From Callorhinchus milii (Eukaryota), in assembly GCF_018977255.1 (NCBI RefSeq), contig NW_024704746.1, positions 21,638,001 through 21,702,000 on the forward strand: a stretch of DNA of 64,000 bases, read 5' to 3'. The translations under genes were made by a program, and so were the position numbers. Every line of letters begins with the position of its first letter. The stretch's first letter is position 1. Shown in pieces: positions 2,460 to 63,144 of the stretch. Below the pieces are notes generated by a model. It made no database searches. It was not told where the DNA came from and worked only from the letters and a program-made list of their open reading frames with translations.

Positions 2460-4361
2460 TTAGACCCCTAACTTAAACTCTGGCGAATATTGTTTTTGTT
2501 CCTTGTGCAGATCCCTTGCTCGATTTTTCAAAAGTTCAGCCTTTTCGTTATCTGTCTGCGTTCCTTCTCCTAGTTTGTACATGCGGCTGGCGTTCGCACA
2601 GGCCCAGATGTGCCCCTGGTCGCAGGCTCGAAGGGAATACTTTAGGGCCTGGCTCATATCCTTGGCTACTCCGGGTGCTCCCTGGATATATAAAGTACTC
2701 AGATTAAAACAGCTGGCTGTAAAATTTCCATTGCAGGCTTTGGTGTAATAATCTCTGGCCACCACGGCGTCCGATTTATCTAGTGCTCGTCCATCATGCG
2801 CCAACAGCCCAACGTTGTGGCAGGCATCGACCGACTTCTTGCCACCCTTCTCACAAGATTTAACAAAGCAATCGTAGGCAGCCTTCAGATTTTGTTGCAA
2901 TCCACCTAATTTCAAAGACAACAGTTAGCACCTGCTCTTGCATAAAAATCTGTGGACGTTCTAACTGTGTGGTGCAACACAGTAAGAATTGTCTCTTTTC
3001 AATCAGTAAACTTCACCCAAAAGTCACAAATAAAAGCTCTCAGCACTGTACCTTCAATTTCTAACAGAGGTCAAATTCTGTAATCATTACATCTGATACA
3101 GTCAGGACCTCATCACATCCAAACGTCTCAAAGCTCTTCACAGAGTTCTGTGAAGTGTAATGATTATTTGTAGACAATTGCAATAGACAATTTACACACA
3201 GCAATATCCCACAATCAGCAATGAAGTGAACAACCTTCTTTAATTTGGGTGGGAGGGAGATGCAACACAGTTTGCATTTACACGGCACCTTTCACGTCAG
3301 GAGGACGTATCAAACGGCTTGACAAAGCTGGATGGGCAACAAACAGAGTGTCGCCCAGGACACCAGGAGACACTCTCTTTTTCAATCGTGTCATTTTTTT
3401 TAATATAACATCCAACACGTTAACACTTGTATTTCCCTTGGTTTAGCACAACTGACAACTTAACACTCCACGACTCACGTTACTTTTTAAACACTGAACC
3501 AACATCCAGAACGATGAGTGAAGGAAGCCATACTGTACCTTTCCCACCAACATAGTAAGCGCCGAGCTTGAAGCAGCTTTCTCCATAATGGTTCTCCTCA
3601 CAGTTTTTCTTTAACACCTGAGCAGCCAGGTCATAGTTTTTCTTAATTCCTTCCAAATAATCAGCAAGTCGTTGACATCCTGCNAAAAAGGGAAATGGTC
3701 GGGGTTGAGTTGACAGACAAAAAAAAAAGTCACCCAACCTGTGCATAGACGGCTTTTTTTAAAAAAAACAAACGACCACATTAAAAAGTTAGTGCCAAAT
3801 CAACCCTTGGGTTCGCTGGGGGCGGCTTTGTCGTGTCTTCTGGACGTCTCAAAAGCGCTTCATAGAATATACTGTGAAGGGCATCGCCTGTTTTGTGGAC
3901 AAAATACAGCAATGCACTACGGTCATCCCTGAGGTACCGCACCAACTGTGTTCTGAAAATTCATATACATTATTATTATCATTATTATTCATATACAGTG
4001 GTGTATATTTACATGACATTCTCTTGGTTCCCTGACCCTGTGACTGCCTCTGGAGTTCAGTGACATGTGTCAGGTGTGGGGCCTCGCCCTGTGCACAGCC
4101 CCTTTGCCGCCGACTGACTGACTGACTGACTGTCCTTCACAAGTGAAAGGGACTCTTGTGTTTCAGAACCACCATTTTGCAGTTGGTGGCCGTCGCCGCT
4201 GTGCCCTCCGCTGAGCGCGGGTGAGAGTCCCAGATACCCGCTGCTCCGTCTTTACCTTCGGCGTCTCTTTCCTTGTGGCACTGGTAACTGTACTCGATGC
4301 CGAGGCTGTCGAGGTACGCCTTCACTTCGCTTTCGTTCTGGAAGTCCACGAGTCCGGCCAT
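2460..4361 (-). CDS. COA7: Cytochrome c oxidase assembly factor 7 (Sel1-repeat protein), 3 coding exons, 230 aa
   Basis: Exons 4361-4256 ([35 protein letters not shown]), 3679-3539 ([16 protein letters not shown]...[12 protein letters not shown]) and 2905-2460 ([14 protein letters not shown]...[14 protein letters not shown]...[20 protein letters not shown]). All introns GT-AG and phase-consistent; 693 nt. Cys-rich SEL1 repeats match COA7/SELRC1. AATAAA on the minus strand at 2325-2330. Confidence 0.96.
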
Positions 4362-4839
4362 CCCGGCACAGCCCAGCGGGGGGGGCGGCGGGTCTCTGCT
4401 CGGGTTAGGGTGGGGGGAGGGCAGGGGGGGGCAGCCGGACACTGACCCGCCGGCAGCGCAGTGCGGAGAGCTGCGGCAATGGGGGCTTTCGATTCCACCA
4501 AAACTGGTGGGAAAGGTCGTCTCGACCCCGACCGCCTCCCGCCTGACCCTGACCCTGACCTGGGGCCGAGTGAGGCCGGTGGGCGGGTGGACGCTCTCCT
4601 CTCCTCCCCCCACTCCCCCCCGGAATTCAGGGCGGTCTCTCTCACAAGGACCCAAAAGCTCAAACGGGAATTAACCCGAACGGGAGATCGGGAAAGAGAG
4701 AGCGAGAGAGAGAGAGAGAAAGAGAGGAGGAGTCGATGCCGCCAATTCCCACTGAAGGGCAGCGAGAGCGCCTCCAGTCTGATTGGCGACGCCGCTCGGG
4801 GCCGAAGGAAGAGGCGGGGCCACGCTGAGTGACTTCCCG

Positions 4840-5160
4840 CGCAGCCAATGGCAGAGCGAGAGCGACGGAGGGGGGTGGTGTCCGAGCGGCCGGTAGCCAA
4901 TGGGAGGGCCAGAAGGGCGGGGAGTCGGTGCGGCCGGCAGCCAATGGGAAGGACAGAGGGTGGGGAGTCGGTGCGGCCGGCAGCCAATGGGAAGGACAGA
5001 GGGTGGGGAGTCGGTGCGGCCGGCAGCCAATGGGAGGGCCAGAGGGTGGGGAGTCGGTGCGGCCGGCAGCCAATGGGGTGGGGCGAGTGTCAGTGCGGCC
5101 GGCAGCCAATGGGAGAGCCAGAGGGTGGGGAGTCGGTGCGGCCGGCAGCCAATGGGAGGG
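4840..5160 (+). repeat. 43-bp minisatellite, each unit carrying AGCCAATGG
   Basis: Unit ~GAGGGTGGGGAGTCGGTGCGGCCGGCAGCCAATGGGAAGGACA. CCAAT at 4845, 4897, 4941, 4984, 5027, 5070, 5106 and 5149. Confidence 0.93.
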
Positions 5161-5433
5161 GGGGGGTTGAGGTTGGGGGCGGGGCCGGTGGTGGGTTCTG
5201 GAAGCTGAGAGGAGAGGGAAAAAGAAGCGGTTCCGGGGCAACAGCGGCAGCGGCTCCCGTCGTCGTCCTCCCCCACCCCCCGCCCCCCGCCCTCCCCCCT
5301 CTCCGGCCCTGTCAGGCCGAGCAACTGCCCGTGAGGGAGAATTAATTTTCTTGGTGTTTATTTTGGGAGGAGGACGAAGGTGTTTAATTTGCATGTGTTC
5401 CCCCCTCTCACTCCCTCCCCCTCTCTCTGTCCG

Positions 5434-5814: not shown

Positions 5815-19299
<13,485 letters not shown>

Positions 19300-20322
19300 A
19301 TCTCACCAGCTTGGGGGGCAGAATATGCAAGTAAGCTTTTTTTTAAAAAAAATGGTTCAGCTCTTGTGAAATTCACCTCCTTTCCCTTTCTGTGTTCCTT
19401 TGGAATTTCAGAATGCATGCAATCATGCAACAAAAAACTGGGAAGGGTAAGAGGGTGAGAAATCCAGGCATTGCGTCACCTCTGGACTCAGTGCTCTGTG
19501 TATATAGTGGTCGGCAAAGCACAATTTAAATGTTGGTTTGAGTAACTCGACCACAGTGGGCTGAACGGACTCCTCCTGTGCTCTGAACTTTTCTGTGCTT
19601 CCTCAACCAGGCCCAAGGTGGTTCGTGAAGGGGGAAAACGTCCAATGTGTTCACCTTTCGTTTCTGAAGATTAGGGACAGCGTTGCCACGGGATTTAACA
19701 GTGCGTCGGTTAAACATTTCTACAAACTAATCTAGATGCAGTAATAATATACCACAATGCGTACATAGTGTTGGTGTGGTTTGTAGTGTTTTTGCAAATG
19801 TCGTTCTGTTGATCTGTTCTACCGGAAGCAGCCTTTGCTTAAATAAATGCTGCTGATGAAACGTTTACTCGACCTGTATCATTTATGTGATTATTATATA
19901 AAAACAATCATTGTGTAACAGAGTTGGATTGTGATTAGCTTAGAAACTTGCTTTCTTATTTTGTACAAAATATTGAATGTTGTTGCCTTTGGGGGAGTGG
20001 ACAGAGATATTTGCATGTCAAATTGCCAAACTACCTTTATATTAAAATTCCTTTTGTGTTACATATATTGCTTGTACAGGGGAGAGTTTTGTAATTGAGT
20101 TCTGGTTTAAAGATGTTTTTCTGTCTAGGAGTCTTACTGGCTTTGGTATATTATAAAATCATCCTGTTGAAGAATCATGATTTAACATGGATTTTGTTTC
20201 CTATATATCTTCTGAAGTCTCGAATCCTGACTTATTTTAGGGATTCGATTTCAAACTGTTGAGCCTCGCTGGAATGGTCTGAGATAATGGCTTTTTTCAA
20301 CTAGAACAAGTCAACTGTTTCA

Positions 20323-22706: not shown

Positions 22707-27890
<5,184 letters not shown>

Positions 27891-28112
27891 CGAGCTGCAA
27901 ACACACCAACGGCCAAACTCCAGCTCAACTTGGCTCAACCCCAAGGCAGGGAGGAAATCCCGCCTTCTCCACCGGGGCTATTGGCTCACACACACTCTCC
28001 TTTGTCACTTTCCTCCCACCATCAATCTGACAGAAACAGTCTGACCAACTATGATCGTTGGGCAACTTCCCTTGTGCTGCAGGAGGCAGTTTGCTTATTG
28101 CGGGAAATGAAA

Positions 28113-28881: not shown

Positions 28882-30835
28882 CAACAACAGCAAGATTACA
28901 TTTGTATAGCGCCTTTCACGTTGGGAGGACGCCCCAAGGCGCTGGACAGTGTACAGCATTTCAGACCCAAGCTGGAGTCAGGGGTTGAGGGGAGGGGAAG
29001 GGAGATGGCCGATGGCATGGTCGAAGAGGAGGGTATTGAGGTGGGACTTGAAGGAGGCTAAGGAGGGGGCGAGGCAGAGTGACTGGGGCATGAAATTCCA
29101 GAGTTTGGGGGCAGAATGGCTGAAGGCCCTCCCGCCAACGGTTGGGTGGTTGGGTCAGGGGACGTGGAGCAGCCAGAGCCGGCTGAGCAGAGGGAGCGGG
29201 CGGGTTGTTAGGGGGTTAGGAGGTCTCAGAGGTAGGGTGGGGCGAGGCCATAGAGGGCTTTGTATGTGAGGACCAGGATCTTGAAGGATAGGGAGCCAGT
29301 GGAGTCCGGCGAGAACGGGGGAGATGGGGTCACGGAGTTTGGTGCGGGAGAGGACACGGGCTGCAGAGTTCTGGATTATCCACAGCCGGTGGAGGGAGGA
29401 GTTGGGAAGGCCGACAAGCAGAGCATTTGCATAATCGAGTCTGGAGGTGGTGAAGGCATGAACAAGAGTTTCAGTGGCCTGAGGGGTGATGTTGTGGCAG
29501 AGTCAGGAGATGTTACGGAGGTGAGGGAAGGCAGAGCGGGTCATGGCTGGGATGTGGGGGAGAAAAGACAGTTGAGGGTCGAACAAGACCCCCAGGTTCC
29601 TGACTGGTTGGTGAGTTGTAGTGAGCAACCATGGAGGTTGATGCTGCCAGAGCCTGAGGCGCTGGCGTGAGCCAATCAGGAGGGCCTCAGTCTTGCTCAC
29701 ATTCAACTGTAGGAAATTTGCCCTCATCCAGAACTTGATGTCTGACAGGCAGTCTGTCTGGACAGCAGTGGTCCTGGAGTTGAGGGTGGAGACAGAAAGA
29801 TAGAGTTGGGTGTCATCCGCATACATGTGGAAGTTGACCCCATGTCTGCGGATGATGTCACCAAGGAGGAGCATGGAGTTATTAAAGAGGAAACAAGGAC
29901 AGAGCCCTGGGGGACGCCAGACGTGACAGTACGGGGGCTGGAGGAGAAACCGTTAGAGGTAAAAAAGTGGAGACAGTGAGAGAGATAGGAATTGAACCAG
30001 GCAAGGGCAGGTCCGCAAAGATTGAGTAAAGCGGAGAGGTGGTGCATGAGGATGGAGTGGTGGACAGGAGGACAAGGAGGCAGAGGGAGCCCTGATCACA
30101 GATGTTCAGAATGTCATTAGTGACTTTGACCAGGGCTGTTTCCGTGCTGTGGGCAGCGCTGAAGCCGGATTGGAGGGGTTCAAAGAGGGGATGGCGAGAG
30201 AGAAAGGAGCGGAGCTGGGACGCAATAACTCATTCCAGGATCTTGGAGAGGAATGGGAGGTTAGAGATGGGGCGGTAGCTGGAGAGGAGGGATGGATCCA
30301 GGGTAGGTCATTTCAAGATGGGGGTGATGACGGCTGTTTTTAGGGGGGGTGGGAACTGAACTGGTGGACAAGGAGAGGTTGATGACGTCAGACAGGAGAG
30401 CGTCCAGAAGGTGGAGCTGGGAAATGAGGTGGGGATGGGATCGAGGGAGCAGGTGGTGGGTTTGAGTTTGCAGACAGACGTGGTGAGGGAGGAGGGAGAT
30501 AGGGTCGAAGGAGTATAGGGGAGGATGGGTGGGGTTGTGTCACAAGGGAGCGGTGATGTGGGGGTGGCTGTGGACGGGGCTGAGGTGGCTGAACATATCC
30601 CCTCGATTTTAGATTTGAGGAAATCCAGCATCTCCTCACAGTTGGAGTTTGAGGAGAAGATGGGTGAGGTATGGGAAGGTGGACGGAGGAGATGGTTAGG
30701 GGTGGAAAAGAGAACCCTGGGGTTGTCCTTTGCCTCCAAGATAACCTTGGAGTAGAAGGAGGATTTGGCGGAGACAAGAACGCAGCGGTAGGTCTTGGTG
30801 TGGTGAAGCCAAATCTGCCGATGGACCGTTAGTTA
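28882..30835 (-). mobile_element. 5'-truncated L2-clade LINE (degenerate reverse transcriptase) with a 10-bp TSD
   Basis: Frameshifted RT motifs GVPQGSVL, FHMYADDTQLY and FLQLNVSKTE; 3' tail with (TTG)n. TSD TTAGTTCTAA at 28872-28881 and 30836-30845. Empty site TTAATTCTAA in the paralogue at 35450-35459. Confidence 0.92.
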
Positions 30836-31305: not shown

Positions 31306-31615
31306 TATCAACAACAACAATGTGAATAACTTTGGTTTATTTCTCTACATAGCATTCAACTTTCTCCCAATTAAATAAATGTGGCCGGTACTCTAAATAG
31401 TTCAATTAATACTTCACCAGCAGTAATACAATTAGCAGACTTGCATATGATGGGTGAATATTACATGACCAGAGTGTGAGATTACATGAAAGGCTGGTTA
31501 CTTTTATATTCAATGTTACAGTCACCACCATCTCCCATTAAAATATGTAACCTCTTTGGAGGATTGCAAAAGACTTTTCAAAACGGAGTGCAGACATTCC
31601 CTCTCTGAAGCTTTA

Positions 31616-33280
31616 TTACATTGGTAAGTGTTTTTTGCCAGACCTTCCAGTACCAGTTGATTGCCCAATGCATTGCTTGAGGAAACTGAGGACCCTGATG
31701 GAATATTTCTCTGGGAATTCTCTGAAATGGTTTACATGTTGTGATGTGCCAAAGTCCACAGATTCCACCCGAACACGTAACTGTTTTCTGGCTCTGATCA
31801 TATTTTCTATGTCCTTGTAGGAAATAACCTTGTCTGATTTGGAATACAAGTAAAGTTGGGGCCACCGAGATGGATCCTGCTTCAGACTGTCATAGAGGGA
31901 CAGGGACCAAAACTTGGACGCTGGGTAAAGCATAAACCTAATGAGCGCAACGAAGACAAATGTGACAGTAGCAAATATCTTTATGAAAGGATTGTTGGAT
32001 GGCCTCAGGATTGAATGGAGTGCTCGGATGCCCCCCTGAAAGTTCTTGTCTCCAGGTCCGCTGTCAAAAATAGTACCGACTACATTCAACTTCCTGTACC
32101 GAGTTGCACCTCTGTCATATTGCAGCTCAATGATGTAGCGGTAGAGCATACACCCTCCGTTACTGAAGACATGGAATACAATTGGATGCTCTTCAATGCC
32201 AATATCAAACAGCAGGTCCAGCAATTTCTTAGCAGTGCCATGGAGGGATCTTGTGCATAGTGAGATTAAAAATATATCTTCCCAGGGAGCAGTATAACTG
32301 ATAACTATGCAACCCTGAAACGATAGGAAAGCATATTTGAATAATGTTAATACAGCTTTTACCATCAGCTCAAAGAGAAGATACCACCGTGTAGATAAGG
32401 AAGACAAGCAACAACATCAAAATCCTTGCATCGGTTTTCCTTGCTTTTGACATTTGGACGTGTGATAATCAGGATTTTGAATCCTTTGGAGGAAAAATGG
32501 ACAGGTCAGGAATTTCTACGAGTGACATCTTTGTAAGAAAACACGCTAATAATGGCTAATATAAACTAAGGTTTGTGATGGCTCCCTCCCCCCCCCCCCG
32601 CCCCCCCCCCCCCACACACACACACAATCAGTCTTACTCTGTCCCAACAGAACCAATTAATTTGGTTATTTTCTCAAATCTAATCTTCATTTTCATAAAG
32701 GAACAGCATGGAGATTTTTGCAAAATTGAATTCCACAAGTTCTTCCTGTGTAGTTCTTGCATTTAGTCAGTAGTATAGAGGCTTAAGATAGAAACAAACA
32801 TTGATTGAAAGAATAATAATAATAATCCTTTCATTTGATATGGCACTATTCACGTCTTCTCGACGTCTCAAAGAGCTTCACAGAATAGACTGTAAAGTGT
32901 AAAAACTTTAAGTGTAAAAAGTGTAAAACTGTAAAGATATAGACTGTATATTTGTGGGTGAAACGCGGCAGCCAAGTGTGCACAGCAATGTCCCACAAAC
33001 AGCCGTGGATTGAAGTGACCAATTTATTATTGTTTTTCATCTGGAGGGATTATTATCAGGCGTGTGGAGTAAGGAAACTTGCCCAAGGTTTCGCCCTGCC
33101 CGGAATCGAACCCAGGTCTCTCGCTTGCAAAGTGAGCGCTCTAACCACTGAGCTACAGGACTCCAAAGCCATGTTACTTGGTACCAACCTTTTTTTTGTA
33201 GATGTGACTGTATTTTGCTAAATGCTTTTCGCGACAGCCAGCCCAACCCAACAAGATTACCACAGGATCATCTTCAAAAT
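31616..33280 (-). CDS. TMEM53: TMEM53 paralogue (copy A): intact exons 2 and 3, no own TMEM53 exon 1
   Basis: Exon 33280-33189 ([30 protein letters not shown]) and exon 32314-31616 ([11 protein letters not shown]...HVFSNGG...TIFDSGPG...[12 protein letters not shown]...SQHVNH...*). Splice sites intact and frame open. Confidence 0.85.
32812..33164 (-). mobile_element. Full-length tRNA-headed SINE in the intron of TMEM53 copy A
   Basis: Head ggagtcctgtagctcagtggttagagcgctcactttgcaagcgagagacc at 33164 and tail at 32812. Absent from the paralogous intron (~37745). Confidence 0.87.
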
Positions 33281-33579
33281 CTAGAATACACAAAGGTAAG
33301 GCGTACCATAGTCCAGTTATAATGTATGATACTCATAAGCAAACTTTGTGTTAAGACTGCCCACCTGTTGGAAGTTAATTGCAGTTTAACATCTATTGAA
33401 AGAAGAAAGGGTTTATTATTATGCAAGTTGTTGTGTACTATACAGTATTCAACAAACAATGTATCATCTAAAGCAGTTTTCGATGGAGGTTAGAGAGTAT
33501 GTACGCAATACTGTATTTATTTTGGCTTTCTTAAGTTAGAGAATAATACTGTACTGTCCACCACAATGAGTCAACAGTT

Positions 33580-33840
33580 AACAACAACAACTTGCATTTA
33601 TGTAGAGCCCACCACGCAGGATAGCGTCCCAGACCGCTTGACAGTGGTGGAGCACGCCATTGAGCCGGGCAGAGGGGAGAGGGAACCAGAGGCACGGTCG
33701 AACAGAAAGGTCTTCAGGTGTGATCTGATGATGGGAGAAGGAAGGGGCAAGGCATAGGGATAGAGGAAGAGTGTTCCAAAGTTTGGGGACTTAGTGACTA
33801 AAAGTGCAGCCACCCATGGTGAAAGGGAGGGCAGGAGGGA
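33580..33840 (-). mobile_element. L2-like LINE 3' fragment in the duplication junction region
   Basis: (caa)n cttgcatttatgtagagccc...; encodes IRSHLKTFLFDRA, an L2 ORF2 C-terminus. Confidence 0.7.
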
Positions 33841-33977
33841 AATGTAGGAGGCCTTGAGATGTCTGTGATCCCAACATCTGCAAAGGACATTACAACTTGC
33901 ATTATGATTTGCAGATCCTCACAAGAGCAACTTTTACTTTTGCTTTTGAAAAAAGAAAAAGACAAAGTTATTAAAAA

Positions 33978-36900
33978 AAACTTAGGGGTGGCAGGGAGGG
34001 GAGGAAAGTTGCCCCTATTTGCAGACCCTGCAGGCGATTTACCTTTAGGATTCACAAAGGGGTTTAACGTATTCCTCTCCACAGACGAGAGATAAACACA
34101 AAGCTGGGCAGCAATTGCCCACTTACCCGAGCTGGCTCCTTGCAAACGGTGGATTTGGATTTGGGGAGCCTGAGGGACTGAGGAACACGATCTCCTGGGC
34201 ACAGGAAACAGAGCACTCCTCGCCTGGGGTAAATAGATGGACTTGATGGTTGAGCTGAGCAGAGGGTTTGTGATCCCAGCTCTGCCGCCCGCACAGAGCG
34301 GAGCAGCCACACAAAGGAGCTTCCTCAGCACTGCCATCGAGCTGCAAACACACCAACGGCCAAACTCCAGCTCAACTTGGCTCAACCCCAAGGCAGGGAG
34401 GAAATCCCGCCTTCTCCACCGGGGCTATTGGCTCACACACACTCTCCTTTGTCACTTTCCTCCCACCATCAATCTGACAGAAACAGTCTGACCAACTCTA
34501 TGATCGTTGGGCAACTTCCCTTGTGCTGCAGGAGGCAGTTTGCTTATTGCGGGAAATGAAACACAGCCAGGGATTGTAGCTGGAAACTTTGGCTGAAATG
34601 TCAATTGAGCGGAATCATATTTTTTTTCGTTCTATACATTTGACGATAAGGAAAGCTTCCCTGCTTTTTCGTGAATCTTTCAGTAGATTGGTTTGGGGAC
34701 GCTGTCTGGGATGCCACCCTGCGTGAGGGGCTGCTGTTGTTGTTGAAACTCTTAAACATGACCAAGGGTTTCCGCTTGTGTCGGACTCCGCTGAGCAAAA
34801 ACACATTGCAGTGCGGTTTGGGATCAGTGTGAGGTCACAATGCCACATACACCAAACCTGCGTGTCTGGAATTCAGAGCTGATCCATTCCCACGTGTGTG
34901 TGTTTGTGTCGATCACTCTCCCGGCACAGCACTCCCGCCTCACTGTCCTCGCTGGCCTTCAGTGGTCAGGGATATCGACTTTAACTCAAACTGAGTAATT
35001 ACAGTAAACGCTGGAGTCGTTTCTAAATAGAGTAGCTACATTTTGAAGGCGTGTAATACAGGTGTGAATGGAAGTGGAAAACCTGGGAATGTTTTCTGAA
35101 CAATCAATTTGCAACAATTGATTTGAATAATAGATGGAATTTATTTTCAAACCACAAATTACAATCCTGTAATTAATGTCAACACGCGCCCCTCACCAAT
35201 ACGCACAATTACATACTTGAAATCAAAAATGGTACACATTACATTTAAACTTTCTTCCCCTGTATCTCCCAAGCCTGAGGTCAAACAAAACAAATATTTA
35301 ATATTATACAGTTTGAAAAGGTGCTTCTCTCTGTTTGGACAGGCCCTCCAGCCTAATTAATACATGTTTTCAAACACTGGAAGGCGGTACATAAATCCTG
35401 ACTAAATGTGAAGGAAGGAGCCTTTTCTCTGTGTCTCATCCTCAATCCTTTAATTCTAATGGCCTCACTTTCACCCAATTCTTTATTGATAAGGACTAAG
35501 TTTCCGAGTGTTCTGTCAAATCTTCCAGTGTATATTTCTGAGGAATATAACTACCTAATGGCTGGTTTTTTTTGATCACCACATTGACCAGAAGACATTT
35601 CTCCATCAATAGCACCGACACAACTGACACAATCATTCTGTTAAAATGCTATGGAACCTTAGACTCTGAATGAGTCCTGTATATTTCTATGGATCACTAT
35701 GGACAGTCAGTATTCTGGAAGGATGAGATCAAATGAGCCAAAGGGCCTTCTTCATCCAATTCTCTCTTCAACCCCTCTACTCTGACTATGATAATCACCA
35801 CTGCTTCCCAAAAGGGAGATTCCTTAGGAAACTGATGCTAAATACAATTTTGACCAAATTGTCCACCACATACCTTCTAACCGCCAAAGTACTTCTCTAA
35901 ATTGCAAGTATTCAAATTGCTGCCAATATGGTTGTTCAGCAAAAAGTAATTTCCAAAGTAATAATCCCTTTGTACATAAAGAACAAACCCTTCATAAATA
36001 AACAGCACATTTGCAGGATGGATATAAAAAAATACATTGGTTGCTGAAGGTATGGAATGAAACATCAATTGTCAGATTGTCAGTCACTGCTCTAACTGAG
36101 GTGTTGTTCACGTAATTTAACTAGGAACATGTGCTTCTCTTCAGTATCAAAGAATATATGACATTGCGAGTTCACATAACAGTAGACTAAGAGATGTGTT
36201 ACATTGAAAGCAATATACACTAATTTGTAGGAAGCAGGAGAAAACTACTATGAATGATAGGAAATGAGATATACAGTACTGTCTGCACAAGACTACATAG
36301 GCAGTGAGAGCAGAGATGGCTTACATGGCTACAAAGTTCTAAGGAAGGCAATGCTTTCCCTGCTTGGATTATTACTTTAATAATTAATTTAAATAATAAT
36401 AATTAATTTATTCATGCGTAGAGTATGAATGACTTCGGTTTATTTCCCAACTCAACGTTCTCCCAATTAAATAAATGTGGCCGGTACTCTAAATAGTTCA
36501 ATTAATACTTCACCAGCAGTAATACAATTAGCAGACTTGCATATGATGGGTGAATATTACATGACCAGAGTGTGAGATTACATGAAAGGCTGGTTACTTT
36601 TATATTCAATGTTACAGTCACCACCATCTCCCATTAAAATATGTAACCTCTTTGGAGGATTGCAAAAGACTTTTCAAAACGGAGTGCAGACATTCCCTCT
36701 CTGAAGCTTTATTACATTGGTAAGTGTTTTTTGCCAGACCTTCCAGTACCAGTTGATTGCCCAATGCAATGCTTGAGGAAACTGAGGACCCTGATGGAAT
36801 ATTTCTCTGGGAATTCTCTGAAATGGTTTACATGTTGTGATGTGTCAAAGTCCACAGATTCCACCCAAACACGTAACTGTTTTCTGGCTCTGATCACATT

Positions 36901-37875
36901 TTCTATGTCCTTGTAGGAAATAACCTTGTCTGATTTGGAATACAAGTAAAGTTGGGGCCACCGAGATGGATCCTGCTTCAGACTGTCATAGAGGGACAGG
37001 GACCAAAACTTGGACGCTGGGTAAAGCATAAACCTAATGAGCGCAACGAAGACAAATGTGACAGTAGCAAATATCTTTATGAAAGGATTGTTGGATGGCC
37101 TCAGGATTGAATGGAGTGCTCGGATGCCCCCCTGAAAGTTCTTGTCTCCAGGTCCGCTGTCAAAAATAGTACCGACTACATTCAACTTCCTGTACCGAGT
37201 TGCACCTCTGTCATATTGCAGCTCAATGATGTAGCGGTAGAGCATACACCCTCCGTTACTGAAGACATGGAATACAATTGGATGCTCTTCAATGCCAATA
37301 TCAAACAGCAGGTCCAGCAATTTCTTAGCAGTGCCATGGAGGGATCTTGTGCTGAGCAGTGAGGTGAAAAATATATGTTCCCAAGGAACAGTATAACTGA
37401 TAACTATGCAACCCTGAAACGATAGGAAAGCATATTTGAATAATGTTAATACAGCTTTTACCATCAGCTCAAAGAGAAAATACCACCGTGTAGATAAGGA
37501 AGACAAGCAACAACATCAAAATCCTTGCATCGGTTTTCCTCGCTTTTGACATTTGGACGTGTGATAATCAGATAGGATTTTCAACCTTTGGAGGAAAAAT
37601 GGACAGGTCAGGAATTTCTGCGAGTGACATCTTTGTAAGAAAACACGCTAATAATGGTGGATATAGTCTAAGGCAGAATTCCTGTGCACTTCTTGCATTT
37701 AGTCTGAAGTATGTAGGCTTAAGATAGAAGCAAATTTGATTTAAAGAAGCCATCTACTTGGTACAAACCTGTTTTTTGTAGATGTGGCTGTATTTTGCTA
37801 AATACCTGTCTCGACAGCCAGCCCAGCCCAGCAAGATTACCACGGGATCATCTTCAAAATCTAGAATACACATAA
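33978..37875. repeat. Tandem segmental duplication, copy B
   Basis: See copy A. Carries segments missing from A (~34688-35027 and ~35721-36420). Confidence 0.92.
34127..34337 (-). CDS. Duplicate ECHDC2 exon 1 (mitochondrial presequence-like), candidate first exon of an ECHDC2::TMEM53 chimera
   Basis: Identical to 27680-27890, including the ATG and the phase-1 donor G|gtaagt. The next recognisable coding exon on this strand is TMEM53 copy A exon 2 (ag|AT, phase 1). Confidence 0.7.
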
Positions 37876-39127
37876 GTATTGGTCCATTGTAGTGGGGCAT
37901 GCTCAAGTTCAGTATTACCTCCTACAATTTGGGTCACACAATTTACCCTTTAGCTTCACGCCCCAAGATTTTGCATTTGTATAGCATATCAAAGTGCTTA
38001 ACTGGTGATCAGCAGCAGAGAATGCATTCCTAGATGGACCTCAAGTCATGATCCCACCCCCTGATCCACCCCCAATCCTCCCTCTGTTCATATTCAGTCT
38101 TTGGACTTGATAAAAGATAACAACCTCGATTAGGCAAGTTCTTGGACTACAGATAACCTCGCAACAGCATTTTTGTAAAGGGATGTACGTGTGTGGATCA
38201 GCAGATTGGATCAAAGTGTGGACTGAAATAGATCCATACGCACAAACACAGATTATGGTCTCATTTGTGATGACATGCGGTAAAGGTTGTGCCTCTCCCT
38301 CTGAATATTTGGGAAGAGAAGGAACATGTGCGCGACAGCATGTAATAACCTTCCGGGTAACAACTTGCATTTACACAGCGCCCTTCATGCGGGGTAGCGT
38401 CCCGGAGCGCTTGACGGCGGCGGAGTCTGACGCCAAGCTGGGGGGGGGGAGCGGGACAGGTGACCGTCAGCACGATCCCCCCCACCCCCCCCAAAAAAAG
38501 GAGATAAACCGGGAGGAGGTGAGGGTGGGAATAAGGTCGGGCCTCGCCGCGACCTGGGGGGCAACGTTCGGTTCGGTGATCGGAGGTGGAGTCCTGTAGC
38601 TCGCGGGAGCGAGAGGCAACCCCCGGGTTCGGTTCCCGGTCGGGGTGGGGGGCGAAACGTTGCGAGTTTCCTCCCACCACACGCACACGCACGCGCACAC
38701 GCACGCGCACACGCACACGCCTCTGTTTACCGGCAGTGAGTAAGAACCCGGTTGTTAGTCGATTGGCGGACGGCTTTTCCGGGGGTGGTGGGGGGGGGGA
38801 GGCAATAAATCGTTCACTTCAACCCACGCCTGTCTGTGGGCGCCGCCGCCGCGTTTCGCCCGCAAAGCGCCCGGTCACTACACTTGACGGTACGTCCCCC
38901 CCCCCCCGCGAAGCGCTTTGAGGCGTCTCGAAGACCTGACCGGGGGGGGGGGTCAAATGTCAGTCAGGGTTATTATTATTATTTGTTTCTTGACGAATTA
39001 TTAACGGATTATTAACGAATTAATGAATTGATAATCTATTAATTATGATTAGTGTTTATTAGACGGACAAACCCGAGTCCTGGAGATTGGGGAACACGAC
39101 GGTGTAGTCCAGCTCGGCCTCTCCCAT
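36712..39127 (-). CDS. TMEM53: Transmembrane protein 53 (DUF829 alpha/beta-hydrolase fold), complete copy B, 3 exons, 282 aa
   Basis: Exons 39127-39073 ([18 protein letters not shown]), 37860-37769 ([30 protein letters not shown]) and 37413-36712; 849 nt in frame. Head-to-head with ARMH1 as in human. Confidence 0.94.
38589..38982 (+). mobile_element. Degenerate, GC-shifted SINE copy in TMEM53 intron 1
   Basis: gagtcctgtagctc head, gccgcgtttcgcccgcaaa core and aagcgctttgaggcgtctcg...(tta)n tail, with an internal (CACG) microsatellite. Confidence 0.75.
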
Positions 39128-39636
39128 CGCGTCGGCGGTTGGCGAACACCCGGTGTCCCGGTGTCTCCCTCTCTCTCCCTCTCCCACCCTCTGAGGGGCT
39201 CTGTCCCTCTCTCCCCGGCGACACCGACCGACGCCGACGCCGACCCCTCGCGCGCGCGCGCCGCTCAACAGCCGAACCGGAAGCGCCTCGCGCGGAGCGG
39301 CCACTGACTTCCTTAGCAACCGCTTCCAACCGTCAACAGGCGCGCGGGCGTGTGTGTGGGCGGGGCGAGGGGGCGGGGCGGCGGCGGAGGAGGAGCGCAC
39401 GTGATGGCACACACAGTCCCGCCTACAACCCCGCCCCCGTCCGCGTGCGATTGGCTCGCGCGCGCCGCTTCCGTCCCGAGGCGCCCCCGCTGGTTGGCTG
39501 TGCGGCACGTCAATCATCCCGCCGCGCGGGGGGGGAGGTGGCTCGCGGTGTCGTGATCGCTCGTCACAATCCGCCCCTCACGAGCTGTTCATTTGAGCGG
39601 TCTCTGACCCGTCCCGAAACGGTTTGAAAAGTTCAG
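39128..39636. promoter_or_regulatory. CpG-island bidirectional promoter TMEM53/ARMH1; probable non-coding ARMH1 exon ending at 39636
   Basis: CpG-dense, with GC boxes (GGGGCGGGGC), an ETS-like CCGGAAG (~39277), E-box CACGTG (~39398) and ATTGG (~39450). Candidate donor CAG|gtaaaa at 39637 and acceptor ccccag| at 40267. Confidence 0.72.
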
Positions 39637-39695: not shown

Positions 39696-39943
39696 CCCTG
39701 ACCATTCCCCCCCTCCTCGCTCCCTCCCTTCCCTCCCCTCACCCTGACCATTCTCCCCCCCCTCCTCGCTCCCTCCCTTCCCTCCCCTCCCCTGACCATT
39801 CCCCCCCTCCTCGCTCCCTCCTCCCTCCCCTCCCCTGACCATTCCCCCCCTCCTCGCTCCCTCCCTCCCTTCCCTCCCCTCCCCTGACCATTCCCCCCTC
39901 CTCGCTCCCTCCCTTCCCTCCCTCACCCTGACCATTCCCCCCC
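39696..39943 (+). repeat. ~45-bp polypyrimidine minisatellite (6 unit starts)
   Basis: CCCTGACCATTC at 39696, 39742, 39790, 39833, 39882 and 39926; runs directly into an L2 3' tail (39944-40040). Confidence 0.9.
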
Positions 39944-40271: not shown

Positions 40272-48137
<7,866 letters not shown>

Positions 48138-60400: not shown

Positions 60401-61934
60401 CATCTGAGTGAAGGAAGTTTATATTGCATTGGTCACTGGGAGCACTTTTTCATTATTCAAATATTTTTAAAGCAGAAAATGAGCATTGCAACATTTGTAG
60501 AGATACCAATTCTGCGCCAGACTTTACCATCTTAACAGTACATGCACATAATTATCCTTGAATTGGATGCACTATGTAGTTAATGAGACTTGTGGCTGCT
60601 AATCTTGTGGCTGCTGGAGTGGTAGCTTTGATTGAACAACTAAATTTTTAATAATTTAGGTGATTGCAGTCCTGCTAATGGAGGCCTTTTTTCAATGATT
60701 CTTTTGGCATCGGAAGCTGATGAAGGAGAAACTAATCATGGAAAATTTAAAAGAGTTAGAAGAGCCAAGTCTGAATGTAGTGGAATGAAACCATAAATGG
60801 AGCTTGTATGGACACCTAATAACCAAATCAAATTGCCTGATTGAATTGATCACTAAATATTAGGGTCAGCAGGACAAGTCTTCTAAGATTTAAAATCTGA
60901 TACTGTTGGCTACACAGTGTTTCAAAAGGAACACTGTTTTAAGATTGATACCAGTGTGTCATTGCGTAATTACCATCTCTTCAGAAGTCTTTAAATATTA
61001 GCTTCATTTGAAATTGGATAAGCATGTCGTGCCCTTTTATTGTGTGGAATCTCCACTGAATCTTGGTTTATACAGATTGTAGACATTATGAGTGGAGAAA
61101 TCTAGCTAAACAAAATGTCACATTTATCTTCTGTTATTATAAACTGCTGCTACAGTTAAAGGCATTGTTTTTCATTTTTCTTCCCCTCTTGTTTCTACAG
61201 GCATTGCACCAGTTGTACTATGATCCAAATATTGATAACAAAAACTTGGCACAGAAATGGTTGATGCAGGCACAAGTCTCCCCTCAAGCTTGGCATTTCA
61301 GCTGGGCATTGCTCAGCCCTGACAAAGTGCCTGAAATCCAGTACTTTGGAGCCAGTGCCCTTCATATCAAAATCTCCCGTTACTGGAATGACATCCCATC
61401 AGATCAGTATGAGACTCTGAAATCTCAGCTTTTCAACCAGATTGCACGTTTCGCTTCTGGATCCAAGATCGTGCTGACCAGACTGTGTGTGGCGTTGGCA
61501 TCGCTGGCGCTTAACATGATGCCAGAGAGATGGCCAAATGCGGTGGGTGACATGGTGAAGATGTTCCAGACTGAAAGTTCGGATGTGGATGGGAAAGCTA
61601 GATGTATGGCTTTGCTGGAGCTGCTAACTGTCCTCCCCGAGGAGTTCCAAACCAGCCGTCTGCCACAATGTAGGAAAGGCCAAGTGCGAAATGCCTTAGC
61701 ACAAGAGTCTGGTGCAGTCTTCCCTCTTCTACAGCAACTCTTACAGCCAGATTCCCCTGTGTTCATCAGTCAAAAGGCTCTCAAGTGTTTCTCAAGCTGG
61801 GTGCAACTGGATGTTCCCCTCTTGGATTGTGAGTGCTTGATGCAGGCCTCCTTCACATCTCTACGGAATGCTGAGCTTTTTGACACAGCAGTTGAAGCGC
61901 TTGTTAATGCCATCTCCCAACCTGATGCACAAAG
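51384..61934 (+). CDS. IPO13: Importin-13, first two coding exons (gene continues beyond the window)
   Basis: Exon 51384-51446 (MDRQRGEGEDSLDYSVENVEK|gtaaaa) and exon 61201-61934 (ALHQLYYDPNIDNKNLAQKWLMQAQVSPQAWHFSW...LLTVLPEEFQTSRLPQ...NAISQPDAQ, AG|gtaagg). Importin-beta N-terminal region. Confidence 0.96.
53190..53660 (+). mobile_element. Decayed CR1-like LINE 3' end
   Basis: cttcagtcttgaagagagacatctcagaggggac...tggaacaggttacca...aaataggccaaagggttttcttcatcc, resembling CR1 3' ends. Confidence 0.55.
57340..57900 (-). mobile_element. Decayed CR1-like LINE fragment
   Basis: Minus-strand remnants MKLYSSLIKLHLDYC and LFSLEREK, resembling CR1 ORF2 (LY.SLVRPHLEYC / LFSLE.RR). Confidence 0.6.
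59872..60085 (-). mobile_element. CR1-like LINE 3' tail
   Basis: atcatagaatcatagaattgtacagaacaaaaagaggccattcggcccaccgag, i.e. a (TTCTATGA)n tail on the minus strand. Confidence 0.7.
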
Positions 61935-63144
61935 GTAAGGAATTTGTGAAGTCAGGTCCTGTACGCTATAACTTATCAAATGTTAGAGATTACCAGACCA
62001 GTATGAGCACTGTACAAAAGCTGGAACCTTAATATATTTTTTAACAGTATGATAATGGCTATTCTTGAAAGAGGTAAGCAGGAATCTTTTTGGAGCTAAA
62101 CTGGCTCCCAAGGTGATGTGCTTGGCAATGGAATGTTGGAATCGAGTCAATCCTCGGTGGCAGATCTGGTAGCCAGTATTCCTGGCACTGCTGATGTCAC
62201 ACCAGCTATCCTTGTTCATCGGCAAAACTTGGAGGGGATGAGCTGGGATTCTTCCCGCTGAGCTCCTGTTAACCTCACAAGCCAAAGCCCTAACTTGTAG
62301 GATGGTTTTAGCTGGACAAGTAGTGAGAAACCTGCCAAACAGTGCTCTCAATGGCAGACTATGTGGTTTTAGTACAGTACCCCAAACATACTCTGGGTGC
62401 TCTGAGCCTTAGTTCTTGCCAACCTGTGCCAAATACTATCCAGAATTAGGTAAGCATGATGTTTCCTGCCAGGTAGAGTGTGCGTTCCATTCCAAACGAG
62501 AGGAAATTTCCATGTGTAAATGATATATGGTTGTGGGTTTCCACATGTCAGATACCTAGACGAATAAAACAAAATTCCAATGACCCATTTGTATCAAGAT
62601 ATTGAGTGAGCTTTTGAATGGTATGAATTCCCCCTAGATTTTTTTTTCCACATTACCTGTTCCTGCTTCCTTTTTGTGAAGAATGCAGCCTTGCCACTAA
62701 ATCTCCTGTATCTGAAAAAGAATAAAAGCTTTTAAATGTAATTAAGACACTCTGTCAGTGGAGCAAATGAACTAAAGGGGCAGTCTTCCATTGATCTGCA
62801 CTTAATTGCTCCTTATAGAGGAAACACTAATCGATTTGAGTTTTCACTAGAGGTGAGTATTAGTTACAAATGTGGTCTTATTTTCAATTATATGTAAGTA
62901 AAGTGGAACTTTGGAGTTCCCTCTAAACTCTTTGAGTTCACTACTTTTACAAGAACGTTATTTTGAATGTGTATTTTTTCTTTTATAAAATATGTCCATT
63001 CAATCTTGATTTTTCTCGAGGTAGGCACGCAGAACAAAAAACCCTCAGTTTTGTTGACACTGAGTTAAAGAAAGTTGAGACTAATCTGGCATTTAATGTC
63101 AACCCAGTGTCCCTGGAGTTGATGCTGCAGACAGTAATAATAAC

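Follow-up and report, generated by a model that had tools for sequence, protein, structure and literature searches.

In a window of 64,000 nucleotides (nt) of the Callorhinchus milii genome, which is the whole stretch of DNA analysed here, the neighbouring genes TMEM53 and ECHDC2 enclose a third gene, in which a copy of ECHDC2 exon 1 stands before copies of TMEM53 exons 2 and 3 (34337..31616, minus strand, as are all the gene parts described below). The order on the minus strand is TMEM53 exon 1, exon 2B, exon 3B, the ECHDC2 exon 1 copy, exon 2A, exon 3A, ECHDC2 exon 1 and the remaining ECHDC2, where A denotes the copies in the chimera and B those of the parent TMEM53. The joined exons (34337-34127, 33280-33189 and 32314-31616) give the 1002-nt frame of 333 amino acids that the initial annotation of this DNA had claimed, identical to XP_042191581.1, and splice reconstruction and copy comparison returned the same coordinates, phases, lengths and counts throughout. 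Exon 1 (34127..34337, 211 nt) has an ATG and the donor GTAAGT and comprises 70 codons plus 1 nt, and its protein is identical to the N-terminus of C. milii ECHDC2 (P0131). A chimeric GT-AG intron of 846 nt in phase 1 (33281..34126) leads to exon 2 (33189..33280, 92 nt), with an AG acceptor and a GT donor. Exon 3 (31616..32314) carries S152, D262, H294 and the hydrophobic helix 212-230, and matches at 100% the C. milii entry ‘TMEM53 isoform X1’ (P0001, XP_042191581.1). A CCAAT box (34431-34427) and a GC box (34411-34406), which together span 34406..34431, can be read just upstream of the likely start at ~34389, and a candidate polyadenylation hexamer, identified from the sequence alone, lies at 31336..31341.

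Exon 1 of the parent TMEM53 (39073..39127) comprises 18 codons plus 1 nt, ends in phase 1 and encodes the conserved N-terminal strand; exon 2 (copy B, 37769..37860) was placed by run joints and copy comparison, and exon 3 (copy B, 36715..37413) by genome matches. A tblastn exon map puts the parent ECHDC2 exon 1 at 27680..27890 and the remaining ECHDC2 down to ~22710. Genome-wide, TMEM53 exon 3 and the duplicated exon-1 tract each occur exactly twice, always within the window.

Expression, duplication and gene conversion

Four assembled runs (X1, X2, X3 and X11) of the 14 that matched were compared over 33170-39300, and the joints reported here are the best 15 of 62 on this stretch. Shares of 0.10-0.26 were recorded for 10 of the 14 runs, eight of which lay outside the comparison. 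The runs consist of contigs, whose depth was not used for ranking expression or counting copies; X1, X2 and X3 are RNA-like and X11 is DNA-like, the RNA status being a guess. The junction 34127->33280, set beforehand as a check, is present as a GT-AG joint (33280-34127, CT..AC on the plus strand) in X1, one of the three RNA-like runs, and in three database proteins. Its depth in X1 was 24.5, next to 22.2 for ordinary TMEM53, that is, above a single-read event. In X3, which belongs to a different study, a joint links exon 2A with an exon 3 of the A type, the upstream piece lying outside the compared stretch; copy A is thus spliced in two of the three RNA-like runs, from two studies. The parental joint between TMEM53 exons 1 and 2 (37860-39073) occurs in two runs. 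The missing cover of exon 2A in X2, and of exon 2B and the 5′ third of exon 2A in X3, may reflect filter holes. Furthermore, contigs of two studies stop at 34387 and 34389 with no upstream cover, whereas the DNA-like run continues, which is a weak hint that transcripts start at the duplicated promoter, a sequence that the ECHDC2 copy also has, and do not arise by read-through.

The three C. milii database proteins that carry the fusion are XP_042191581.1 and the UniProt entries V9KZ73 and V9KXN9, all labelled simply TMEM53. The model XP_042191581.1 derives from the same assembly, and therefore is not independent DNA evidence. The other two have the same N-terminus as the chimera and an exon 3 that differs from this assembly, and presumably come from transcript submissions. 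Almost certainly, then, the gene is a real spliced chimera.

Some further joints in X1 should be mentioned. TMEM53 exon 1 is joined straight to exon 3B (39075-37415), a frame-shifting skip of exon 2, and exon 2A is joined to a site inside intron 2 (37571/33188). A human TMEM53 variant with a similar exon 2 skip has been described (PMC8024261; here and below, papers are cited by PMC number for what their available parts state). RNA-like contigs extend the 3′ untranslated region (UTR) of the parent TMEM53 by ~1.55 kb (35145-36711), to near an AATAAA at 35145, which lies ~750 nt before the likely chimera start.

The initial annotation had proposed a duplication, and an origin by tandem duplication of the TMEM53/ECHDC2 boundary is borne out by the parents being intact on either side, with parts taken from two adjacent genes and with flanks that have diverged by 12%. 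Over five non-coding blocks, the alignment of the two units, A and B, has 95 differences in 780 nt (12.2%, corrected 0.133). The flanks have also gained transposable elements, as previously noted: unit A has private repeat insertions within intron 2, downstream of the 3′ UTR and between the genes. A repeat of the short interspersed nuclear element (SINE) type (32809..33163, minus strand) occupies intron 2 of copy A only and is 77% identical to other copies in the window. A decayed fragment of a long interspersed nuclear element (LINE; 28882..30835, minus strand), with an RVT_1 match below the cut-off, splits the homologous intergenic DNA in unit A only, including the counterpart of the stretch with the AATAAA at 35145, and by this comparison is an insertion that followed the duplication. 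The duplication is old, roughly 30 to 300 million years, which is a bracket rather than a date, obtained with a mammalian rate and with the tenfold lower rate assumed for C. milii (PMC4422223).

The first 149 nt of the chimeric intron come from ECHDC2 intron 1 and its final tens of nt from TMEM53 intron 1; otherwise it aligns only over one repeat fragment of 74.5% identity, and the breakpoint lies within the region between, not placeable more closely. This alignment gives no demonstration of a repeat-mediated crossover. Overlapping contigs of the DNA-like run X11 across 33170-34561 tile the chimeric intron.

Within the diverged units, two tracts are nearly identical between the copies. The first (33978..34561, minus strand, matching 27531-28112) covers the duplicated ECHDC2 promoter, exon 1 and the first 149 nt of intron 1, and has 99.5% identity over 584 nt, with one substitution in 582 nt and one 2-nt indel, in flanks of ~88%. 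The second (31360..32560, minus strand, matching 36459-37662) covers the end of intron 2, exon 3 and the start of the 3′ UTR, with 22 differences in 1208 columns (~1.2 kb) and a core of 4/635. Compared with the flanks (95/780), the tracts (1/582 and 4/635) give P about 1e-30, and such near-identical tracts inside diverged flanks are, as judged from the alignments, the product of gene conversion. That promoter, ATG, donor and exon 3 are intact is consequently of little use as a sign of selection on the chimera, because they have been converted from the parent genes.

Inside the second tract, conversion has spared an island (32257..32289, minus strand) of eight differences between copies A and B (seven substitutions and one 3-nt indel), most of which change amino acids. 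None of 20000 random placements was as clustered, the divergence of the island equals the flank level (P=0.35), and the fusion entry P0112 carries the B-type island. Divergence peaks within conversion tracts can mark selection (PMC3924837). In addition, seven C. milii database proteins show mixed combinations of exon-3 variants, which fit ongoing exchange between the copies; mosaics of transcript assembly or gene models would give the same picture. For example, RefSeq ‘isoform X2’ (P0108, XP_042191582.1) pairs a 5′ part of the B type with a tail of the A type, and the two do not occur together in the window; it is likely a mosaic gene model.

Exon 2 is unconverted and was probably too short to be converted. 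Its two copies differ at 9 of 92 nt, and the recount gave five synonymous changes, as claimed before, and four non-synonymous ones. The ratio of non-synonymous to synonymous rates (dN/dS) of the pair is about 0.15 (Fisher P=0.012), and polarisation with shark sequences assigns two amino-acid changes to each copy. For purifying selection on exon 2 of copy A these figures are only suggestive.

Leader, hydrolase-fold core and relatives

The description of the 70-residue leader as free of acidic residues and rich in Arg, Lys, Ser and Leu was borne out: exon 1 encodes no Asp or Glu, six Arg and two Lys (eight K/R), nine Ser and nine Leu. The start of the leader is amphipathic, with a hydrophobic moment of 0.51. 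A motif of the R-x-[Y/C]-S type occupies leader residues 48-52 and recurs in the corresponding position ahead of the first strand in all six elasmobranch ECHDC2 proteins compared. The whole ECHDC2 N-terminus, with presequence features common to shark ECHDC2s, is hence kept in frame in the chimera. Mitochondrial presequences are often cleaved according to an Arg-based rule, by which cleavage of the leader is predicted near residue 51/52. From these features, mitochondrial import of at least part of the chimeric protein appears likely. The initial annotation took ECHDC2 for a mitochondrial and TMEM53 for a nuclear-envelope protein, and the literature agrees: rat ECHDC2 is reported to fractionate with mitochondria (PMC3835224), and TMEM53 to reside at the outer nuclear membrane and the endoplasmic reticulum (ER) (PMC3077400, PMC8024261, PMC10336727, PMC3925691).

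Residues 76-313 of the chimera match the full PF05705 (DUF829) profile (198.5 bits, positions 1-242 of 242). S152, D262 and H294 do not vary across an alignment of 58 sequences and correspond to S113, D220 and H252 of human TMEM53, for which a Ser-Asp-His triad has been proposed (PMC8317215). A hydrophobic two-helix lid has been described, and membrane esterase or lipase roles have been suggested (PMC11878206); the hydrophobic helix 212-230 is retained in the chimera. The model of native TMEM53 is an alpha/beta hydrolase with a predicted local distance difference test (pLDDT) score of 88, whose fold matches esterases and lipases, and its core elements recur in the model of the chimera.

The conserved acidic N-terminal strand that exon 1 encodes in TMEM53 orthologues is lacking in the chimera, with ECHDC2 sequence in its place. 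Exon 1 forms strand 8-11 of the native model. The IQIH of the chimera (residues 60-63), which is the first strand of ECHDC2, is separated by 16 residues from the proline at the start of the next strand, the same distance as for native strand 8-11. A strand swap, with IQIH standing in for the TMEM53 exon-1 strand, is therefore plausible in the models, if unproven; alignment A3, which places the TMEM53 strand on the leader, was avoided for this question.

Among 129 proteins fetched with the TMEM53 motif, the ECHDC2 leader is present in three, all from C. milii. Consecutive accession numbers and read-through models indicate that TMEM53 and ECHDC2 are also neighbours in sharks and rays. For example, automatic models of Heptranchias run from TMEM53 exons 1-2 into ECHDC2 exon 1, and automatic models of Chiloscyllium splice TMEM53 exon 1 on ECHDC2 exon 2, giving a leaderless ECHDC2, which is the reciprocal swap; these opposite-direction read-through chimeras are the RefSeq models P0278, P0134 and P0251. 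Shark entries named ECHDC2 that contain a TMEM53 domain were considered as cases of the same fusion and rejected, being ordinary TMEM53 or opposite-order read-through.

A profile search listed 147 further DUF829 relatives, of which the 80 that begin with Met and contain the GW motif were usable; a crude leader rule was satisfied by 15 of these. A quick tree of the core domain alone was made from 51 hand-picked rows of the 147 together with earlier matches. In it, P0106, P0368, P0393, P0394, P0403, P0405 and P0415 form a clade of their own (Shimodaira-Hasegawa-like approximate likelihood-ratio test, SH-aLRT, 100), and all seven have a basic, acid-poor, presequence-like leader, a short hydrophobic strand and a DUF829 core. 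This clade stands on a long branch from vertebrate TMEM53, and the chimera groups with C. milii TMEM53. A leader-bearing DUF829 protein, with a putative localisation like that of the chimera, thus exists elsewhere by another route, as a natural counterpart. As a lead only, a feature search placed the chimera nearest to arthropod-rich DUF829 clusters of 307-331 amino acids.

C. milii also has a second, distant DUF829 gene (L009 5494-6899; G000:C5, about 68,241,494-68,242,899, plus strand). Its coding region contains a 351-nt SINE-type repeat with GT/AG ends, whose removal as an intron leaves an open frame of 284 amino acids, which makes it a candidate for intron gain by SINE insertion. In the tree this gene adjoins the leader-bearing clade, with weak support and on a long branch. 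The idea that the chimera replaced a lost mitochondrial paralogue is unsupported, since the second gene is open if the SINE is spliced out.

Origin and maintenance of the chimera

The reading that we prefer, with a rough probability of 0.55, is that a spliced chimera arose by unequal crossover, that its product is a predicted membrane-bound ester hydrolase that enters mitochondria, and that the chimera is kept by selection. The crossover would have taken place between the first introns of TMEM53 and ECHDC2, both of phase 1, and would have set a copy of the ECHDC2 promoter and exon 1 before a copy of TMEM53 exons 2-3, with splicing in frame. The mitochondrial import machinery would recognise the leader, which would be cleaved at about the predicted site, and residues 52-70, about 19 residues of ECHDC2, would replace the 18-residue TMEM53 exon 1, with IQIH as the N-terminal strand. 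The hydrophobic lid helix would bind the mitochondrial membrane instead of the ER or nuclear envelope. Selection would keep the gene, and conversion would keep its promoter and address label in step with ECHDC2. On its own, maintenance by selection for mitochondrial import is favoured by a little over even odds. A bolder version is tentative: a mitochondrial DUF829 hydrolase may have been re-invented through the neighbour's exon 1, which would supply both an import signal and an equivalent first beta-strand, conversion may lock promoter and address label to ECHDC2, the island, on the substrate side, may be held apart by selection, and the family may have a recurrent mitochondrial role.

Several observations weigh against the preferred reading. 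Conversion is able to keep exons 1 and 3 intact without selection on copy A. In exon 2, the copy-A branch has two changes where 5.0 would be expected if neutral (P=0.12), and the total divergence (9/92) is indistinguishable from that of the flanks (P=0.63). The ‘retained gene’ of the initial annotation stands as far as the gene exists, is spliced and has an open frame, whereas the intact state of exons 1 and 3 is largely due to conversion and the copy-A branch by itself is not significant. TMEM53 reportedly requires its hydrophobic segment to reach the nuclear envelope (PMC8024261), and this segment could prevail over the leader; the hydrolase activity of TMEM53 is a proposal (PMC8317215, PMC11878206). 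In the chimera model most of residues 1-66 are below a pLDDT of 50, only two residues, 62-63, form a bridge, and a competing strand lies at 30-35. The chimeric junction is missing from X2 among the best 15 of 62 joints, the ordinary joint being present and exon 2A without cover, and the guessed RNA status of the runs weighs on the same side. Against the duplication as such, a single 2177-nt contig of X11 runs unbroken through the exon-3 tract of copy B, and an A-type exon-3 contig is lacking among those listed, exon 3A lying outside the compared stretch; simplification by the assembler can explain this contig. The fusion was not found in other species, and no other holocephalan protein surfaced in the protein searches. 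Finally, to judge from its place in the tree, the second DUF829 gene may already be of the leader-bearing type.

It is also conceivable, though rather unlikely, that the chimera is carried along neutrally: it would be transcribed and spliced, with promoter, exon 1 and exon 3 repaired by conversion, and the 92 nt of exon 2 and the four splice sites would survive by chance. Gene conversion can restore and maintain copies that have no function (PMC3924837), the tracts here extend over nearly all the coding sequence, and the mosaic haplotypes of the seven database proteins suggest that exchange is ongoing. The copy-A test and the absence of the junction from two of the three RNA-like runs, among the best 15 of 62 joints, point the same way. 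However, both splice sites of the unconverted exon 2A and its frame have outlasted 12% divergence of the flanks and several insertions, and exon 2, with its dN/dS of 0.15, has no excess of changes on copy A. Moreover, the tracts coincide with the exons, as would be expected if selection had kept the exons alike as the flanks decayed.

Less probable still is that the benefit of the chimera lies in its promoter, which would place TMEM53 activity under ECHDC2 control, with the protein mainly at the ER and nuclear envelope as before or shared between compartments. The chimera promoter is held identical to that of ECHDC2, the presence of the junction depends on the sample, and helix 212-230, which human TMEM53 needs to reach the envelope (PMC8024261), is retained. 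Against this, the whole ECHDC2 leader, with a conserved cleavage-type motif, is kept in frame. N-terminal presequences usually dominate targeting.

We regard it as very unlikely that the pieces serve the parents, with the exons of copy A as an alternative 3′ end behind TMEM53 exon 1, or the extra exon 1 as a second ECHDC2 promoter, and the fusion as a side splice. All the first introns are in phase 1, so that every exon combination is in frame, shark models splice through between TMEM53 and ECHDC2 (P0134, P0278), and ECHDC2 exon 2 lies outside the compared stretch. Nevertheless, no joint of TMEM53 exon 1 to exon 2A (39073-33280) is among the best 15 of 62, and all three database proteins with exon 2A begin with ECHDC2 exon 1. 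Polishing can homogenise near-identical tracts, and the unbroken X11 contig would suit an artefact of assembly or polishing behind the duplication or the tracts, but this can hardly be upheld against flanks that are 12% diverged with private insertions, X11 contigs that overlap across the chimeric intron, one of them stopping exactly at the border of the 584-bp tract, and the junction and A-specific variants in RNA-like runs.

Known systems and neighbouring features

The chimera retains the traits of TMEM53/NET4 in DUF829 (PF05705), namely the full Pfam match, the three-exon core, the invariant S/D/H and the lid helix, but it is without the acidic exon-1 strand and has a basic leader of 70 residues instead. 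With the seven-member clade it shares a basic, acid-poor leader, a short hydrophobic strand and the DUF829 core, from which clade it is nonetheless separate. First exons with a phase-compatible intron have also donated import signals in plants, where cytochrome c1 of potato reportedly captured its presequence from GAPDH exons, and genes transferred from organelle to nucleus have borrowed the first exon of a host gene. In contrast to such captures, which restore the targeting of an already mitochondrial protein, the predicted case here is a nuclear-envelope protein newly imported, and in a vertebrate.

Duplicates can also change compartment by gaining an N-terminal mitochondrial signal; GLUD2 and Par17 are said to be such cases. 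Better documented are TOP1MT and SIRT3 (PMC2790464), which resemble the chimera in that a presequence is acquired by a paralogue, which would then move to another compartment. As far as that source describes them, the signal donor in those cases is unidentified and most are ancient, whereas here the donor is a neighbour's exon, still identical in sequence, and the localisation is predicted. A close parallel in origin is Sdic of Drosophila melanogaster, a chimeric gene from a duplication across the adjacent genes sw and AnxB10 (PMC7475035). Both are boundary duplications of two neighbours, with the chimera between intact parents and continuing conversion with a parent. Unlike Sdic, which by that account is at most ~1.4 million years old, forms an array and has a de novo first exon, the C. 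milii chimera is single and old, and its exon 1 is an unchanged coding exon with an organelle address.

We found no publication on a TMEM53-ECHDC2 fusion or a mitochondrial DUF829 protein, subscription journals and supplements, e.g., those of genome papers, lying outside the search. The sequence of the chimera is already in the databases under the label of an isoform, and it is an unrecognised vertebrate case of a known type of event. Vertebrate cases in which the donor of the import signal is still identifiable, adjacent and identical in sequence are apparently uncommon, which is our impression rather than the outcome of a survey. In practice, RefSeq ‘TMEM53 isoform X1’ of C. milii represents a chimeric gene in its own right, and ‘X2’ seems to mix the two copies. 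TMEM53 causes a sclerosing bone disorder in humans, and to our knowledge no enzymatic substrate has been shown for it. A natural mitochondrial TMEM53 together with the leader-bearing clade would, if true, point to a lipid-hydrolase activity independent of compartment and offer a second handle on that activity. Phase-matched first exons of neighbouring genes may also be seen as swappable modules, the reciprocal splice being annotated in bamboo sharks.

Elsewhere in the window, Pfam matches identify a Sel1-repeat protein (2463-4670), a Zer-1-type leucine-rich repeat protein (10249-19366), a DUF5578 protein (41449-46306) and an importin (61060-61935), which we take to be COA7-like, ZYG11-like, ARMH1-like and IPO13-like, respectively. 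GC-rich tandem repeats with units of ~45 and ~90 nt occur in bidirectional promoter regions (39696-39943, 4841-5162).

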